Shown: positions 16,269 through 31,721, counted from the first letter of the stretch. The stretch: DNA of 64,000 nt from Nanobdellota archaeon (GCA_021811735.1 JAJZNK010000025.1:4718-68717), one strand, 5' to 3'. Numbers and translations are program-made. Notes: a model not told the origin generated them from the sequence alone.

Positions 16269-16307
16269 TAGGAACGGTTATAAATTTGAACCATCATAAT
16301 AACTAAT

Positions 16308-17240
16308 ATGAGTCCAGGCGAATTTTGGGTTTTTATAGTTGGAATCGTCACCCTAGTGCTGCTCTTTGTATTAAGCTTGTTTATGCCTAGTTTCTTTTAC
16401 GTATTTTTGGTGATATTTCTACTGCTTCTGGCGTCTATATTCTTCATAACCTTTGTAAAGCAGTACAGTCAGTTTGAAAGGGGCATAATTTTCAGGCTTG
16501 GGAAATTCAATAGAATAGCAGGGCCTGGATGGGCCATAGTGATACCTTTTTTCGAAGAAGAATACAAGAAAGTAGATGTTCGTGTGAAGATGATGGATGT
16601 GAGCTCACAGGATATATTTACGGCAGATGACCTTAAACTTTCTCTCGACGGCACAATCTACTATCAGATAGTCGATCCAGAAAAGGCGACATTACAAATA
16701 GATAATTATGGGCAGGGTCTTTCAAATCTTGTGCAATCTGCTGTTAGAAACTCCATAGCATCGTTCACAATGCGTCAGGTATTTGGCAGTTTAGACCGCT
16801 TAAATGACATACTGGCGGACGCTATAAGACACATGACTTGGAAATGGGGCATAGACGTTCCATCCGTCCAGATAAGAAGCGTTTCTCCTTCAAATGAGGT
16901 TATACAGGCCATGCAGCAGCCGGAAATAGCTGCAAACCTACTTCAGGCCCAGAGATTCAAAGCAGAAGCCCAAAAGATAGTTATAGAAGCTATAGGAGAA
17001 GGAGGAAAGTCATTGGATGATAAATCAACAATGTACCTCTACCTTCAGGCATTGAAACAGATGGGAGAATCCAGCTCTTCAAAGATAGTACTTCCTATGC
17101 AATTTATGCAGAATGCAGGAGGCATGCTAGGAGGTATGGCAGGGCTTTCCACGGCCGCGATGGCATCGCTTGGCGGGCAGGAAAACGTGCAGAACGTGAT
17201 AGACAAGATAAAGGAAAAGATTTCGCAGTCAAATTCCTAA
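16308..17240 (+). CDS. SPFH/band-7 (stomatin/prohibitin-like) membrane protein
   Basis: N-terminal TM region followed by ERGIIFRLGKFNRIAGPGWAIVIPFFEE..VDVRV, typical of stomatin-family proteins. Confidence 0.85.
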   Translation: MSPGEFWVFIVGIVTLVLLFVLSLFMPSFFYVFLVIFLLLLASIFFITFVKQYSQFERGIIFRLGKFNRIAGPGWAIVIPFFEEEYKKVDVRVKMMDVSSQDIFTADDLKLSLDGTIYYQIVDPEKATLQIDNYGQGLSNLVQSAVRNSIASFTMRQVFGSLDRLNDILADAIRHMTWKWGIDVPSVQIRSVSPSNEVIQAMQQPEIAANLLQAQRFKAEAQKIVIEAIGEGGKSLDDKSTMYLYLQALKQMGESSSSKIVLPMQFMQNAGGMLGGMAGLSTAAMASLGGQENVQNVIDKIKEKISQSNS

Positions 17241-21856: not shown

Positions 21857-23569
21857 ATGAAATCACCAATATGCGCATTTTTAGGACATGTCGACGCAGG
21901 TAAAACCAGTATAATGGATGCTATAAGGTACACGATGTCTGCGTATAAGGAAAGTGGCGGGCTCACTCAGAATATAGGAATCACTGAAATTCCGACTAAC
22001 CGGATAAACGAGATAGCAGAGGACTTACTTAAGAAATTTAGCATAGATATAAAGGTTCCAAGTATAATTTTTATCGACTCACCAGGTCACGAAGCTTTCG
22101 TCACACTGAGGGAGAGAGGAGCTTCGATAGCAGATATAGTCATTCTTACCGTTGACGTAACCGAAGGAATACAAAACCAAACGATAGAATCGATAGAGAT
22201 ACTCAAGTCATACAAGACTCCCTTCATCGTCGCATTGACGAAGATAGACAATATAAGGGGTTTTTATAAGGTTTCAAAATCCTCGTTTTTGGACTTTATT
22301 TCAAAGCAAGGGAGTGATTATTCGCAAATGCTTGATGAAAAAACATACAAGCTCATAACCGATTTGTCATTGTATAATTTCCAGGCAGAAAGATACGATA
22401 GGATAAAAGATTTCACAAAAGAAGTTGCAATAGTTCCACTGTCTGCTGTAAATGGAATAGGGATAAAAGACCTTATAGTCATGCTTATTGGGCTGAGTCA
22501 AAAATACTTGGAACTTAGCAAGCAAGAGGGAAGCAGTGCCGCTATCCTAGAGGAGAAGAACGTCAAAGGGCTGGGAAAGGTGTATGATGCAATAGTTTAT
22601 TCTGGTAAGTTGAAAACAGGAGATGCCGTTATAGTAAACACTGCCGAAGGGCCTTTGGAAAACAAAATTAAAGGGATAATGCGTCTCGCACCACTTGAGG
22701 AAAGCAGGGAGAACTTCGGAAAGTACGAGAGCCTGCAGGAGGTAGAGGCGACAACTCCAATAAGACTGACATTACAGGAGCCTAATGCAATGATAGGTAC
22801 ATCAATAAACGTTTTTTCATCTGAGGAAGAAAAACAGAATTTATTGAACAGAATGAAAGAAGACACGAGTTACAATAACGATAAGAGTAAGGGATTAGTA
22901 ATCTGTGCAGATTCTTTAGGTAGTATCGACGCGATAAGAAACATAGCGCAGTCTTCGAATATTCTTATCGGTAAAACCAAGGTGGGAGAACCGTCTAAAA
23001 ACGATATCACAACTGCAAGTGTCAACGGTGGTGTGATCCTATGTTTCAATGTTCCTGTTTCAAAACAGACAGAAACCATAGCAGACGATTATTCTGTCAA
23101 GATTATAAGCTCCAAGTCGATTTATACTCTTTTTGATCTTTACGGCCAGTTCCAGCGCGAGTTTAAGAGCATGGATCTGGAAAAGAGAAAGGAAAGACTG
23201 AGACTCCCTTCAAAATTCATATTCTTAAAAGGAAACATATTCAGGAGGTCCGGGCCCTGCGTTTTTGGCATCGAAGTAATAGCCGGAGAGATACGACCGA
23301 ATTATCCTGTTATAAATTCCAAAGGAGAAAGGGTGGGCAGGATAATAGACATACAATCTGACAAGTCAAAACTTTCAAGCGCTGTAAAAGGGGATAAAAT
23401 TGCAATAAGCATCGACAACGCCGTTTACGGAAGAAATCTGTTTGAGGGGGACGTTCTTTACACCGATATCGAACTACCGGACATAATAAAGTTCGATGAT
23501 CTTTCAGCAGACTTGTCAGAAGATTATACTGAGGCTATTTCAGAGACTAGAAAAATAAAAAGACTTTAG
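21857..23569 (+). CDS. infB: translation initiation factor aIF5B (IF-2 family GTPase)
   Basis: PICAFLGHVDAGKTSIMDAIR, DSPGHEAF and TKID motifs. 570 aa. Confidence 0.9.
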   Translation: MKSPICAFLGHVDAGKTSIMDAIRYTMSAYKESGGLTQNIGITEIPTNRINEIAEDLLKKFSIDIKVPSIIFIDSPGHEAFVTLRERGASIADIVILTVDVTEGIQNQTIESIEILKSYKTPFIVALTKIDNIRGFYKVSKSSFLDFISKQGSDYSQMLDEKTYKLITDLSLYNFQAERYDRIKDFTKEVAIVPLSAVNGIGIKDLIVMLIGLSQKYLELSKQEGSSAAILEEKNVKGLGKVYDAIVYSGKLKTGDAVIVNTAEGPLENKIKGIMRLAPLEESRENFGKYESLQEVEATTPIRLTLQEPNAMIGTSINVFSSEEEKQNLLNRMKEDTSYNNDKSKGLVICADSLGSIDAIRNIAQSSNILIGKTKVGEPSKNDITTASVNGGVILCFNVPVSKQTETIADDYSVKIISSKSIYTLFDLYGQFQREFKSMDLEKRKERLRLPSKFIFLKGNIFRRSGPCVFGIEVIAGEIRPNYPVINSKGERVGRIIDIQSDKSKLSSAVKGDKIAISIDNAVYGRNLFEGDVLYTDIELPDIIKFDDLSADLSEDYTEAISETRKIKRL

Positions 23570-24387
23570 GGCCAGTTTTTTATGGCCGTTTCGTAAAGAT
23601 CCATACTGTCGCATGGCAGCCATTTTCCAGAGTATATAAATCCGTTTATTACTTTTTTCTCTGCAACTTGCTCAAAAATTCTAGAAATATTTGATTCTCC
23701 TTGTGGAAGTAAACTAAGAAAAGAAGGGTTTATAACGTATATACCTGCATTTACAAGATGAGATACCTGCTCTGTTTTCGGTTTTTCTATGAATTTTACA
23801 ATCTTGTTTCCCTCCATTTCGACAACCCCAAACTGGGAGATATCGTCTCGTGGCACGAGAGCTAAGGTTACAAGTGGCTTTTCTTTCTTATGAAACTCAT
23901 ATATTTTATTAAGATCAAAGTCAAACAGGTTGTCACCATTTAACACTAAAAAATCGTCATGAAACAAATTTTGGTTCTTTTTTATTGCTCCTCCAGTTCC
24001 CAGAGGACTTGTTTCTTCAGAGTATCTTATCCTTACTCCGAATTTACTGCCATCTCCAAAGTATTCATGTATTTTGCTTCCAAGGTATCCAACAGATATG
24101 ATTATATCCAGAAAATCTGCTTTTTTCAGCTGTTCAATTATATGTTCAAGAATCGGCCTACCGTTCACAGGCATCATGGGTTTGGGCATCTCATAAGTAA
24201 GCGGTCTTAGTCTGGTTCCAGATCCTCCTGCGAGTATAAATGCAATCTTACTTTTGACAGGTTCAAAGTGTTCCTTTATTATTCTTTCTATTGCTATCGA
24301 TCTATTTGGAATATTTATCCCATCTACAGTTTTGTCTATTTTCTCAAGGGTTTTTCTGTTTATGGTTATTGTTACCCTATCTTTCAT
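23566..24387 (-). CDS. sugar-1-phosphate nucleotidyltransferase with N-terminal ribbon-helix-helix-like domain (paralog 1)
   Basis: N-terminal MKDRVTITINRKTLEKIDKTVDGINIPNRSIAIERIIKEHF (beta strand plus two helices), then AFILAGGSGTRLRPLTYEMPKPMMPV (NTP-transferase G-loop). Its stop codon overlaps the infB stop. Confidence 0.75.
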   Translation of the reverse strand: MKDRVTITINRKTLEKIDKTVDGINIPNRSIAIERIIKEHFEPVKSKIAFILAGGSGTRLRPLTYEMPKPMMPVNGRPILEHIIEQLKKADFLDIIISVGYLGSKIHEYFGDGSKFGVRIRYSEETSPLGTGGAIKKNQNLFHDDFLVLNGDNLFDFDLNKIYEFHKKEKPLVTLALVPRDDISQFGVVEMEGNKIVKFIEKPKTEQVSHLVNAGIYVINPSFLSLLPQGESNISRIFEQVAEKKVINGFIYSGKWLPCDSMDLYETAIKNWP

Positions 24388-24585
24388 ACAAATTCATACA
24401 TAGTATTACTTATAAATCTTATCTCCTCTATTAATCAAGATTTTCATTACTACTTTGTCGACATTGTGCGCGGGGTCACAATAAGTATCGATGATACCCA
24501 TATCGATAAAAAAGTTTAATAGGCTACCATCAACTTCCTTTTGATTATTCTAAGATGTTACTGGAAGCAATGGGATAACAATGTT

Positions 24586-25404
24586 TTAAGGCCAGTTTTT
24601 TATGGCTTTCTCATATAAGTTCATGTTGTCGCATGGCAGCCATTTCCCAGAGTATATGAATCCATCTATGACTTTCTCGTCCACGACCTGCTCAAATATT
24701 TTTGATATATTTGATTCTCCCTGTGGCAAGAAACTCAGAAACGCTGGATTTAAGACGTACACTCCAGCATTTACCAAATGTGAGACTTGTTTAGTCTTTG
24801 GCTTTTCTATGAATCTTACTATTTTGTTTCCTTCCATCTCTACGACGCCGAACTGCGATACATCATCTTGTGAGACCAGAGCAATGGTGGCAAGTGGTTT
24901 GTTCTTTCTGTGGAATTCATATATCTTATTCAAGTTAAAGTCGAAAAGGTTGTCTCCGTTCACGACTATGAAATCGTCATGAAACAAATTTTGGCTCTTT
25001 TTTATCGCACCACCAGTATCCAACAGGCTAGTATCAGAGTATCTTATCCTTACTCCGAATTTACTGCCATCTCCAAAGTATTCATGTATTTTGCTTCCAA
25101 GGTATCCAACAGATATGATTATATCCAGAAAATCTGCTTTTTTCAGCTGTTCAATTATATGTTCAAGAATCGGCCTACCGTTCACAGGCATCATGGGTTT
25201 GGGTATCTCATAGGTAAATGGCCTTAGTCTGGTTCCAGATCCTCCTGCGAGTATAAATGCAATCTTACTTTTGACAGGTTCAAAGTGTTCCTTTACTATC
25301 TCCTCTATTGCTATGGATCGGTTAGGTACATTTACTCCATCAATAATCTTGTCTATTTTTTCTAGGGTTTTTTTGTTGATAGTTATGGTAATTTTATCTT
25401 TCAT
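24586..25404 (-). CDS. sugar-1-phosphate nucleotidyltransferase with N-terminal ribbon-helix-helix-like domain (paralog 2)
   Basis: Same architecture as 23566-24387. 272 aa. LAGGSGTRLRPFTYEIPKPMMPV. Confidence 0.75.
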   Translation of the reverse strand: MKDKITITINKKTLEKIDKIIDGVNVPNRSIAIEEIVKEHFEPVKSKIAFILAGGSGTRLRPFTYEIPKPMMPVNGRPILEHIIEQLKKADFLDIIISVGYLGSKIHEYFGDGSKFGVRIRYSDTSLLDTGGAIKKSQNLFHDDFIVVNGDNLFDFNLNKIYEFHRKNKPLATIALVSQDDVSQFGVVEMEGNKIVRFIEKPKTKQVSHLVNAGVYVLNPAFLSFLPQGESNISKIFEQVVDEKVIDGFIYSGKWLPCDNMNLYEKAIKNWP

Positions 25405-25444
25405 ATGAATTCATGTGAAGTATTACTTTATAAAATTATATTGC

Positions 25445-26584
25445 TCATTTTTCCAGTGCCTTTGACACGGCCGCATCGAAATTTTTAATAAATCTGTTTT
25501 CATCATATCTTTCTGAATTGATAGCTCCTTTTGCAAGTCTAAGATATAGTTTCTTGTCAGATACTCTTTTCAAGGCATCTGCAATGTGAGTTTCATCGGC
25601 GTTTACTAACAAGCCATTTTTCTCGTTTATTATAAATTCTTTGGGCCCACCTTCATTTACTGCTATTACTGGTTTTCCATAGGCAAGGGATTCTAAAGGA
25701 GTTAACCCTGTATCTTCGTTTATAGCGAGAAATAACGTTACATAACAGCTATTGTAAAGTCTATTCAATTCGTTCTCTGTAAGGTTGTCCTTCACTATAA
25801 TATTTTTGTTTTCCATGCTTTTTATCTGCTGGAAATATTTTTGGTCCTCTACAAATCCTGCTATCACTAGTTTGAAACCATCTTTAGCTAGTTCAGAGCG
25901 TTCAAATGCCTTGATAGCAAGATCCTGTCGTTTGTATTTTATGAATCTACTTGGATAGAATATTATTTTTTCAGGAGTTCGTTTTACGTTCTTAATCTTA
26001 TAATTTGCATACGGACCCAAATTGAATATTCTCTTTTTTTGTATCAACTGGTAGTTTACAAGTCGTTTTTTTACTTCCTCACTGAGAACAAATGCGTAAT
26101 CTATTCTCTTCCATGCCAGTTTTTCAAGCCTCTTGTATAGTGGTATCGTCATTGGCAACAAAATACGGTTTCTCTTATTTTCGTCTCTATAATAACCATA
26201 CATTGTATGCGCAACTCTCAAAGGAGTATGACATAACGCTATCGTTTTTTTATGTTGATTTCTGAATGTTATAAACTCCGATACACCTGCAGTGGATATC
26301 ATAAATATATCATATTTGTTAATAGATTTTATCTTTGTTAATATCAGTCTTGTAAAAAGTCCAATTCCTCGCCCTATAAATCCCTTCGGCTCGGATTTGT
26401 TTAGTTGTATTACTCTGTAATTTTTAAATTCTGCAAAGGTTTTATCTCTGTCATAGAATAATGTGTAAATATCAAACTGATATTTTTTATTCTCCAGTAA
26501 CTTTAGGATAATCCTTTCGATACCCCCTTTACTTTTTATCCATGGTACAAAAAGTGCTATTCTTATTTCTCTACTGTCTTCCAT
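25445..26584 (-). CDS. GT-B glycosyltransferase (GT4-like)
   Basis: C-terminal EDTGLTPLESLAYGKPVIAVNEGGPKEFI matches the GT4/GT1 E-x7-E region. 379 aa. Confidence 0.8.
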   Translation of the reverse strand: MEDSREIRIALFVPWIKSKGGIERIILKLLENKKYQFDIYTLFYDRDKTFAEFKNYRVIQLNKSEPKGFIGRGIGLFTRLILTKIKSINKYDIFMISTAGVSEFITFRNQHKKTIALCHTPLRVAHTMYGYYRDENKRNRILLPMTIPLYKRLEKLAWKRIDYAFVLSEEVKKRLVNYQLIQKKRIFNLGPYANYKIKNVKRTPEKIIFYPSRFIKYKRQDLAIKAFERSELAKDGFKLVIAGFVEDQKYFQQIKSMENKNIIVKDNLTENELNRLYNSCYVTLFLAINEDTGLTPLESLAYGKPVIAVNEGGPKEFIINEKNGLLVNADETHIADALKRVSDKKLYLRLAKGAINSERYDENRFIKNFDAAVSKALEK

Positions 26585-26621
26585 TTAATATTTAATACTT
26601 TGAGGACCAATATTAACATTT

Positions 26622-30659: not shown

Positions 30660-31721
30660 ATGGATTTTTTTAAGGAGGGAACTATCAAGTTCTACGCGGA
30701 AAATAAACAGCTTAAAAGCTCAGGTGTGTTTTATAACCCTATTAGAAAATTTGATAGGAGCCTGAACGTTCTGTTTCTGTCATCATTGAACAGGTCCAAT
30801 CTTAATGGGTTAGAACTTTTTTCTGGCAGTGGAGTGAGGGGAATACGGATTTGTGCTGAGACAAAAAAATTTTCCTCTTTCGATTTCAACGATATAAAGT
30901 CGGTGGCTATAATCAGTAAGAACTTAAGGATTAACAAAGATCATTTGAATGGCATGGAACTGTGCGTGCACAATGAAAATTCAAAATTCTATGTATCTAA
31001 AAAGAAGTACGATTACGTCGATGTAGATCCTTTCGGCTCACCAGTGCCATACACGGAGCCAGCTTTGGGGTTTTTGAGTAGAAAAAGTATTTTGGCTGTA
31101 AGCGCGACCGATACAGCAGCCCTATTAGGAAGTGCACAAAGGGCCTGCCTTAGAAAATACGGTTCACTCTCGCTTAAAACATCTTACAGCAACGAACTTG
31201 GCATAAGGATTTTGATAAAGAGAATAGCAGAATTGTCTGAGGATAAGGGTCTTCATGCTAAACCCCTTCTATTTGATTTTGACGGTAACTTTATAAGAGT
31301 CTATTTTTCTTTCTCGGCTTCGTCTCAGGGAAGGATTGGTTATGCATACCAATGCAGCAAGTGCCCTTCACGCACACTTAAAAGAATTGAAAAATGCGTC
31401 TATTGTGGATCTAAAATGACACAAATTGGCCCGCTTTGGTTAGATGGGATTTTCAGCAAAACTACTGTAAAAAATATGTTGTCTTTTCTCGAGAATAATG
31501 CAACTAATTTAGCGGAAGATAGAACTAGTCTTCATGATTATCTTTTCACACTCTTAGCAGAAAAAAACATATTCTCATATTATACTACTAGTGAACTTTC
31601 CTCATTTTTCAAGAAGCCAGAGGAGAAAATATCAAAATTCAGCGACAGGACTATACTCTCTTCAAAGGGATTCAGAACAAAACTTAGTTTTGGAGAACTT
31701 GCAGAAAGTCTCTGGTCCTAA
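30660..31721 (+). CDS. trm1: tRNA (guanine26-N2)-dimethyltransferase Trm1
   Basis: FYNPIRKFDRSLNV, LELFSGSGVRGIR, VDVDPFGSPVPY and a C-terminal CxxC..CxxC cluster. Confidence 0.85.
   Translation: MDFFKEGTIKFYAENKQLKSSGVFYNPIRKFDRSLNVLFLSSLNRSNLNGLELFSGSGVRGIRICAETKKFSSFDFNDIKSVAIISKNLRINKDHLNGMELCVHNENSKFYVSKKKYDYVDVDPFGSPVPYTEPALGFLSRKSILAVSATDTAALLGSAQRACLRKYGSLSLKTSYSNELGIRILIKRIAELSEDKGLHAKPLLFDFDGNFIRVYFSFSASSQGRIGYAYQCSKCPSRTLKRIEKCVYCGSKMTQIGPLWLDGIFSKTTVKNMLSFLENNATNLAEDRTSLHDYLFTLLAEKNIFSYYTTSELSSFFKKPEEKISKFSDRTILSSKGFRTKLSFGELAESLWS

Follow-up and report, generated by a model that had tools for sequence, protein, structure and literature searches.

Two tandem genes on the minus strand of a 64,000-nucleotide (nt) stretch of DNA from a Nanobdellota archaeon (GCA_021811735.1 JAJZNK010000025.1:4718-68717; this whole stretch is called the window below) encode sugar-1-phosphate nucleotidyltransferases (NTases) with a predicted DNA-binding head of the ribbon-helix-helix (RHH) type. 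We call them gene A (23566..24387, 273 amino acids) and gene B (24586..25404, 272 amino acids). The window comes from contig C3 of G000, an 878-kb, 52-contig short-read metagenome-assembled genome (MAG) of an ultrasmall DPANN archaeon, an acid-mine member of the Parvarchaeales ("ARMAN" type). It is likely that A and B are bifunctional RHH-NTase paralogues which repress their own transcription, that their core has been homogenised by gene conversion, and that B is diverging in function. A sequence-only reading of the window had described two co-oriented open reading frames (ORFs) of these lengths, and they were found at the positions given above.

The first 41 residues of each protein (24265..24387 in A and 25282..25404 in B, both on the minus strand) resemble the RHH domain of NikR. 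A profile built from 21 N-termini of the family matched E. coli NikR (1q5v/2hzv) with E=1.3e-10, P. horikoshii NikR with E=4e-5 and CopG with E=9e-4; its stretch RlTITLrkdlLkevDkliDGekirNRShAIE aligned to a 31-residue segment of the E. coli protein. The head of B scored 77 bits against the family profile. When the N-terminal 47 residues of A were searched in isolation, Pfam RHH_1 (PF01402) gave 21.7 bits, above the cut-off of 20.5, and 16 of the 21 family N-termini matched; in the full-length B protein the same model gave E=0.002. The RHH head also matched the NCBIfam models CdrS and NikR. In the AlphaFold2 (AF2) model, residues 1-10 form an extended strand followed by helices at 11-20 (or 11-18) and 29-41, with a predicted local distance difference test score (pLDDT) of 88-96. 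The earlier suggestion that the N-terminal segment of about 40 residues is RHH-like could thus be narrowed to the NikR type by the profile, the isolated Pfam match and the strand-helix-helix model. Codons 1-36 had a non-synonymous divergence (dN) of 0.036 vs. a synonymous divergence (dS) of 1.3 in the comparison with genome G010. This indicates purifying selection, and therefore that the N-terminal extension is translated. The heads of A and B are 78% identical, with R4 in A and K4 in B, and the genome encodes no further RHH domain of the NikR-like kind. The C-terminal domain NikR_C (PF08753) was absent from A, B and the entire genome, while control genomes were positive. Because only the RHH part is NikR-like and NikR_C is missing, neither protein is a NikR.

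The remainder of each protein is an enzyme domain. Pfam NTP_transferase (PF00483) matched from residue 49 on in both proteins (E=2.7e-47 for A and 1.8e-42 for B), and both copies contain the G-loop LAGGSGTRLRP and the catalytic lysine motifs PKPM and EKPK. The AF2 model of A has a Rossmann-like NTase fold with a pLDDT of 93. Foldseek searches with the whole model returned nucleotidyltransferases only: 8x7s (E=3e-25, template-modelling (TM) score 0.79) and MurU (E=1e-24), together with GMPPB/VTC1 and RmlA, over a TM range of 0.71-0.79. Among the NCBIfam equivalogs (GlmU, ManC, RmlA, GalU, MurU etc.) no cut-off was reached, the best score being 168 bits for Arch_glmU against a cut-off of 292. 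These matches suggest a short-form NDP-hexose (nucleoside-diphosphate-hexose) pyrophosphorylase nearest to the group formed by ManC, GalU, MurU and the N-domain of archaeal GlmU. The short-form sugar-1-phosphate NTases MurU (4y7u), tlr0611 (8x7s), GMPPB/VTC1 (7d72/7x8j), RmlA and HddC share with A and B the PF00483 domain, the G-loop, the PKP and EKP motifs and the fold; the RHH extension of A and B has no counterpart in any solved or curated family. Apart from an RmlA-like enzyme on contig C2, the genome encodes at least four further NTase paralogues without an RHH head elsewhere. A candidate stop-containing third copy on contig C2 was rejected. The region (L003:1297-2999) holds an ordinary RHH-less RmlA-like nucleotidyltransferase of 246 amino acids, overlapping an RmlB-like dTDP-glucose 4,6-dehydratase of 321 amino acids, and no pseudogene.

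The fusion is not peculiar to this locus. The N-terminal domain is carried by 111 of the 120 best homologues, and the hosts include Parv-, Nano-, Woese-, Aenigm- and Altiarchaeota, one Asgard MAG and, in the candidate phyla radiation (CPR), Kerfeld-, Gottesman-, Falkow-, Buchanan- and Saccharibacteria. In a search of 1.84 billion representatives at 50% identity, a profile covering the RHH head and the G-loop retrieved 257 clusters at E<=1e-10, and most of the listed matches cover both parts. By these searches, the RHH-NTase fusion is a conserved family, of roughly 200 such clusters, across DPANN archaea and CPR bacteria. No description of an RHH-sugar nucleotidyltransferase fusion was found in the searchable full-text literature. 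In Woese-, Nano- and Altiarchaeota (L102:1793-3121, L087:2322-3656, L068:2334-3686) a phosphoglucomutase/phosphomannomutase gene lies directly 3' of the RHH-NTase gene, and at L060 the neighbours are a Polysacc_synt flippase and a GlmU-like NTase-LbH protein. Because of these neighbours, RHH-NTase genes appear to head operons for sugar activation and NDP-sugar supply. Some members have degenerate G-loops, such as LAGGTKSKVMLS or LLGGVDISLKP. Seven proteins (P0211, P0242, P0252, P0267, P0269, P0247 and P0240) keep the NikR-like RHH domain and the NTase fold while lacking GxGxRL and the PK lysine. Where the G-loop is destroyed, the enzyme has probably lost its catalytic activity and become a sensor-only regulator. 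Two genomes of the genus studied here, G009 (L037) and G017 (L040), have an RHH-less version of the enzyme, starting with MVKDLHVKAFILAGG and MANDLHVQAF, respectively. ATATTAC...ATCATAT, spaced by 12 nt, stands upstream of the gene at L037 and may be what is left of an operator.

The 80 nt upstream of 78 homologue loci were aligned on their start codons. A TATA box near -30 is followed by recurrent words of the form GTATGA/TCATAC or GTAWTAC. GTATGA/TCATAC occurred at 39 of the 78 loci vs. 4 expected; among hexamers, only the TATA word was more strongly enriched. As controls, 248 upstream regions were taken from the same loci. One or more GTAWKAY sites were present at 54 of the 78 targets vs. 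42 of these controls (Fisher p=2e-17). Two or more were present at 25 of the targets vs. 7 of the controls (p=9e-12), 1% of shuffles and 11 of the 986 upstream regions of this genome. Successive sites were exactly 10 nt apart in 18 of 30 cases. The sites usually lie at -22 and -12, downstream of the TATA box and ahead of the ATG; in one Woesearchaeota-like group the pair lies about 10 nt upstream of the TATA box instead. Both inverted (AGTATGA-N5-TCATACT; L052-L056) and direct arrangements (GTATTAC-N3-GTATTAC and ATCATAC-N3-ATCATAT) occur.

The half-sites can be compared with those of NikR, whose Arg3, Thr5 and Thr7 contact bases. Homologues with the β-strand RVTITL, which is that of E. coli NikR, carry the NikR hexamer in the arrangement AGTATGA-N5-TCATACT. 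The E. coli NikR operator is GTATGA-N16-TCATAC (PMC7055735, PMC4486848). Strands with Ser in place of the first Thr (R-x-S-x-T) pair with GTAWTAC, not GTATGA, in about four lineages (L051, L063, L067, L087, L089, L095, L108 and L109). This covariation of β-strand and half-site is no more than suggestive, as the lineages are few. Among four evaluable RHH-less homologues there was no strict site pair at 10-11 nt spacing.

The promoters of A and B themselves contain such words. For A, the promoter and predicted operator span 24393..24416 on the minus strand and read TTTATAA-GTAATAC-tat-GTATGAA-tttgt-ATG, with the TATA box TTTATAA at 24410-24416, site 1 (GTAATAC) at 24403-24409 and site 2 (GTATGAA) at 24393-24399. 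The starts of the two sites are 10 nt apart, and 5 nt separate the end of site 2 from the ATG. The corresponding region of B (25410..25435, minus strand) reads TTTTATAAA-GTAATAC-ttc-ACATGAA-ttcat-ATG, with the TATA box TTTTATAAA at 25427-25435, site 1 (GTAATAC) at 25420-25426 and a degenerate site 2 (ACATGAA) at 25410-25416. A 17-mer of the A promoter is the only exact match in the genome to the clade consensus RTAATACNNNRTAWKAM, and a scan of the 878-kb genome gave 33 one-mismatch matches vs. 32.6 expected, which is the chance level. Because the A promoter is the sole exact match and one-mismatch matches are at chance, we infer autoregulation and no wider regulon. Two loose GTAWKAY sites 11-12 nt apart were also seen at three other places of the genome (C19:8062-8187, C46 upstream of 16272-17039 and C52 upstream of 31009-31440), e.g. 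AAATATTACCTTAAGTATTAT after a TATA-like box; the number of promoters of this type is at the chance level.

A and B are partly identical at the nucleotide level. The 170-nt tract at 24017..24186 in A (codons 68-124, minus strand) equals that at 25034..25203 in B (minus strand) in 170 of 170 positions. Beyond it, 5 mismatches in 19 nt (24187-24205) are followed by 73 of 73 identical nt (24206-24278 = 25223-25295), and these stretches (24187..24278 in A, minus strand, with the partner at 25204-25295 in B) make up the remainder of a high-identity block that starts at codon 37, the RHH/enzyme junction. These figures of the sequence-only reading were all reproduced. At the other end of the tract lies a divergent segment with a 3-nt indel (23989..24018, minus strand), which encodes EETSPLGTGG in A vs. 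-DTSLLDTGG in B (25009-25035); the indel and the diverged ends are as the earlier reading had described them. The repeats are offset by 1017 nt on the 5' side of the indel and by 1020 nt on its 3' side. In total, the high-identity block measures 262 nt (gene nt 110-371, codons 37-124) and reaches from the end of the RHH domain, through linker, G-loop and nucleotide-binding half, to just before GT(A/G)G.

A codon alignment of A, B and the single-copy orthologues of eight sister species allowed us to ask how this identity arose. Outside the block, the two copies diverge at 24-25% of nt, which equals the distance between either copy and any sister species (15-28%); within the 170-nt tract, each is 16-21% away from every orthologue. 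Nei-Gojobori counts gave 0 changes between A and B for the 35.7 synonymous sites of the tract and 3 for the 57 of the whole block. In their flanks the proportion of synonymous differences (pS) is saturated at 0.75-0.81. Because the tract differs from the orthologues with a pS of 0.70-0.81, it is under no unusual nucleotide constraint. In a Sawyer-type permutation over 356 polymorphic sites, A and B had a concordant run of 64, vs. a maximum of 28 in 100,000 shuffles (p<1e-5), and the next-best sequence pair reached a run of 18. Maximum-likelihood trees of the block joined A and B as sisters on near-zero branches (support 98/95), and in trees of the 3' part they were placed in an unresolved polytomy, their terminal branches measuring 0.43 and 0.35. 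Because of the orthologue divergence within the tract, the permutation result and the discordant trees, we attribute the 262-nt block to recent non-allelic gene conversion between A and B, and not to constraint. By the same comparisons, conversion has homogenised the nucleotide-binding core, while the RHH heads, the promoters and the sugar-binding halves of A and B have stayed distinct. Distances to the orthologues did not settle which copy was donor and which acceptor. A MEGAHIT contig from another sample (ERZ27237063; L009:1-15 = 25008-24994) starts inside B with A-type bases at 25006 and 24995 and then continues with B-type bases. Its start suggests a longer tract in that population, also overwriting the G130D region described below, and hints that the tract endpoint varies between populations. 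The earlier proposal of ongoing conversion therefore holds as to conversion, on synonymous sites, permutation and trees; that it is ongoing is hinted at by this one contig.

Gene B differs from A at several points of possible functional weight. Gly130 of the motif (P)LGT(A/G)G is kept in A and in 118 of 118 other homologues, and is Asp in B; this G130D change and the one-residue deletion of B sit immediately past the end of the conversion tract. In the 3' halves the non-synonymous divergence is about 0.10 with saturated dS, and for this reason both copies are under purifying selection there. Because of K4, the degenerate second half-site and G130D in an otherwise invariant motif, B is probably sub- or neofunctionalising, in specificity, activity or a regulatory role.

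Several observations weigh against an operator-binding function of the head. Pfam RHH_1 gave 17.4-18.4 bits on full-length A and B, under the cut-off of 20.5, and a Foldseek search with the 47-residue monomer returned nothing at E<=0.001, the best hit being 4qpq, the N-terminal domain of TraM (E=3.3, TM 0.64), which we take to be RHH-like. The GTAWKAY motif was defined post hoc and many loci are phylogenetically related, so the p-values given above are optimistic. The strict motif is missing in most CPR members and some Altiarchaeota, the second sites of both A (GTATGAA) and B (ACATGAA) fall outside it, and the motif could be bound by another factor. One may thus suppose that the head is only a dimerisation or partner-binding module, as in antitoxins, and that the motif belongs to another factor or to the core promoter. 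Members with an E-rich β-strand (L113, L126, L080, L081 and L092) and most CPR members lack the motif, which would fit this supposition, as would the absence of a significant Foldseek match for the isolated head. We nevertheless regard it as unlikely. The motif is about 10-fold specific to promoters of the family over neighbouring and genome-wide promoters, its 10-bp phasing is typical for operators of RHH tetramers, the hexamer is the NikR half-site where the β-strand is that of NikR, and Ser-for-Thr strands accompany GTAWTAC rather than GTATGA. Moreover, the genome encodes no other NikR-like RHH domain. The preferred reading remains that of a DNA-binding head, and the earlier idea that the fusion couples the enzyme to transcription gains support from the NikR-type RHH domain together with operator-like half-site pairs conserved in the family.

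The identity of the two cores and the origin of B also admit other explanations. That the tract or the tandem is an assembly artefact (a collapse or a strain-variant chimera) might be suspected in a short-read MAG, since a 170-nt repeat exceeds the usual k-mer sizes and two MEGAHIT contigs end at or within a tract copy. The tandem sequence was, however, present in five assemblies or contig sets: G000, GCA_021832485.1, two ENA MEGAHIT assemblies and a Logan contig. The 79.6-kb contig of GCA_021832485.1 contains the tandem pair too and shows a single mismatch over 8.8 kb, one ENA MEGAHIT contig (k=141) spans GT4-B-spacer-A as far as the 5' 264 nt of A (GT4 being the upstream glycosyltransferase gene), a second spans B(3')-spacer-A-aIF5B, and the Logan contig contains all of B at 100% identity. 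The three unique junctions GT4-B, B-spacer-A and A-aIF5B each recur in several assemblies, contig breaks at the tract are expected from a real repeat longer than k, and a collapse loses copies but cannot turn two distinct sequences identical. We therefore give an artefact very little credence. No more credible is an explanation without conversion, by a very recent duplication whose ends diverged fast or by selection on the nucleotides of the tract. It is true that the tract codes for the most conserved part of the enzyme, the G-loop region. But synonymous sites of the flanks are saturated (pS about 0.8), which accelerated protein evolution could not yield, single-copy orthologues differ within the tract at 16-21% of nt and 70-81% of synonymous sites, and no Rfam match overlaps it.

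The history of the duplication leaves more room. A match to the genes was found in 20 of 24 genomes of the same genus, one each in 19 of them and two partial ones in G016, and the loci examined in detail share the context GT4-NTase-aIF5B. Another count gave a single copy in 20 of 21 same-genus genomes with a match, G016 again being the exception. The partial copies of G016, at the start of contig C28 (L046) and the end of contig C19 (L047), overlap by 372 nt with 2 mismatches; they are ambiguous between a strain-variant break in one gene and a very young second copy. On this distribution the A/B duplication is specific to the lineage. In a collection of 5.8 billion proteins, none was nearer to the diverged parts of B than A-type proteins, so that B may be either an old duplicate kept in this lineage only or an import from an unsampled relative. 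Under the second alternative, B was inserted in tandem and conversion followed. The single copy in related species, the lack of a closer relative than A-type proteins, flanks of B that are as far from A as from other species, and a 165-nt spacer of no recognisable origin would fit an import. Against it stand the absence of a mobile-element or integrase signature beside B, a promoter of about 30-40 nt common to A and B, and the lack of a B-type donor among the 5.8 billion proteins, and an old duplicate retained in one lineage would appear identical. An import seems to us somewhat improbable. Conversion between two tandem paralogues accounts for the identical cores under the preferred reading.

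On the minus strand the genes follow the order GT4, B, a 198-nt spacer and A, and there is a 4-nt overlap between A and the stop of the convergent aIF5B gene. The gene directly upstream of B (25445..26584, minus strand) encodes a family 4 glycosyltransferase (GT4; Pfam Glycos_transf_1, E=7e-29), as the sequence-only reading had proposed, and it is a syntenic partner throughout the genus. The same reading had included similar leaders in the repeat unit. This is true of about 30-40 nt adjoining each ATG (81% identity over 27 nt) and does not extend to the other 165 nt or so of the spacer, which are unique. This unique, non-coding part (24417..24585, no strand assigned) has no similarity to its flanks, the rest of the genome, Rfam or phage records. 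The 198-nt spacer as a whole does not derive from the 3' end of aIF5B or of GT4, and searches for an Rfam family, a phage match or a second genome copy were negative. Two pilin-like genes lie nearby; by eye, their N-termini resemble class-III signals, and one encodes a LamG domain. The GT4 gene and a 231-residue pilin-like gene have divergent starts separated by 37 nt (26585-26621), in which GTATTAA-type words are present but no convincing phased pair was found.

The closest solved relative of the RHH head is NikR of E. coli (1q5v/2hzv; P. horikoshii, 2bj1), with the shared pattern R-x-T-I-T-L...NRS-x-AI. In both cases an N-terminal RHH domain is attached to a C-terminal domain for ligand binding and oligomerisation, which in NikR is the nickel-binding, ACT-like NikR_C and in A and B would be the NTP_transferase enzyme. 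The GTATGA half-site is common to both (PMC7055735), although NikR has N16 between its sites while those of RHH-NTase promoters are 10 bp apart from start to start, in adjacent major grooves. In this respect they are similar to the operators of Arc, MetJ and CopG, with paired subsites about one helical turn apart that overlap the promoter. Arc, MetJ and CopG are stand-alone small repressors, whereas in the RHH-NTases the enzyme domain would be the tetramerising partner, and the promoters are of the archaeal TATA type. On RHH operators in general, two dimers reportedly occupy such paired subsites, which may be tandem or inverted (Schreiter & Drennan 2007, as cited in PMC4486848). Enzymes that regulate transcription are known in other systems: in PutA an N-terminal RHH domain is fused to proline dehydrogenase/P5C (pyrroline-5-carboxylate) dehydrogenase, NadR couples a DNA-binding domain to a nucleotidyltransferase, and BirA and NadR are trigger enzymes. 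Like these, an RHH-NTase combines catalysis with a DNA-binding domain of its own, and the state of a substrate or product is expected to govern repression of its own pathway or operon. The enzyme domains of PutA, BirA and NadR are unrelated to it, no homology beyond the RHH fold is known, and the lineages and the pathway, here NDP-sugar supply, are different.

The best reading of the sequence data is that the RHH-NTase is an autorepressing "trigger enzyme". RHH dimers belonging to an oligomer of the enzyme would bind two GTAWKAY-type half-sites one helical turn (10 bp) apart on the same face of the DNA, and the 10-bp pairing of half-sites in the family's promoters lends indirect support to dimers of this kind that would contact DNA through their two-stranded sheet. 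These half-sites follow the TATA box and precede the start codon of the enzyme's own gene, whose transcript would be leaderless, and the bound protein would block recruitment of RNA polymerase. The ligand state of the NTase domain (NTP, sugar-1-phosphate or NDP-sugar) probably modulates DNA binding, by analogy with NikR, PutA, BirA and NadR. The level of the enzyme would thereby be matched to the demand for activated sugar at the adjacent GT4/pilin glycosylation locus, and conversion would keep the nucleotide-binding core of B identical to that of A. Extended to the whole family, the postulation is that RHH-NTases are an undescribed one-component trigger-enzyme family of DPANN and CPR, which sense the state of NDP-sugars or their precursors catalytically and repress themselves through NikR-like recognition of 10-bp-phased GTATGA-type half-sites over the transcription start. 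Members with a dead G-loop would be pure transcription factors, and conversion at the present locus would preserve the sensor core. We put this wider postulation forward tentatively, as a serious possibility of somewhat less than even standing.

Gene conversion between tandem paralogues is ordinary and a textbook matter. Here it provides an example of domain-selective homogenisation, in which the core is made alike and the DNA-binding head, the operator and the sugar-binding half stay distinct. The interesting part is the predicted family of autoregulatory enzymes, for which the family-wide operator evidence is new and makes a testable variant of the RHH trigger-enzyme theme. Surface glycosylation is central to the attachment of DPANN archaea and CPR bacteria to their hosts. 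To our knowledge, their genomes are tiny and contain very few recognisable transcription factors, and next to nothing has been established about the regulation of their surface glycosylation. With a protein of 273 amino acids, a predicted operator of about 20 bp and few candidate ligands, the RHH-NTase would allow a cheap test of metabolite-coupled gene control. The family gives a natural series from enzyme-regulators to what are probably regulator-only proteins, and the match between NikR-like strands and half-sites may be a rare case in which the specificity of an RHH domain is predictable from sequence.

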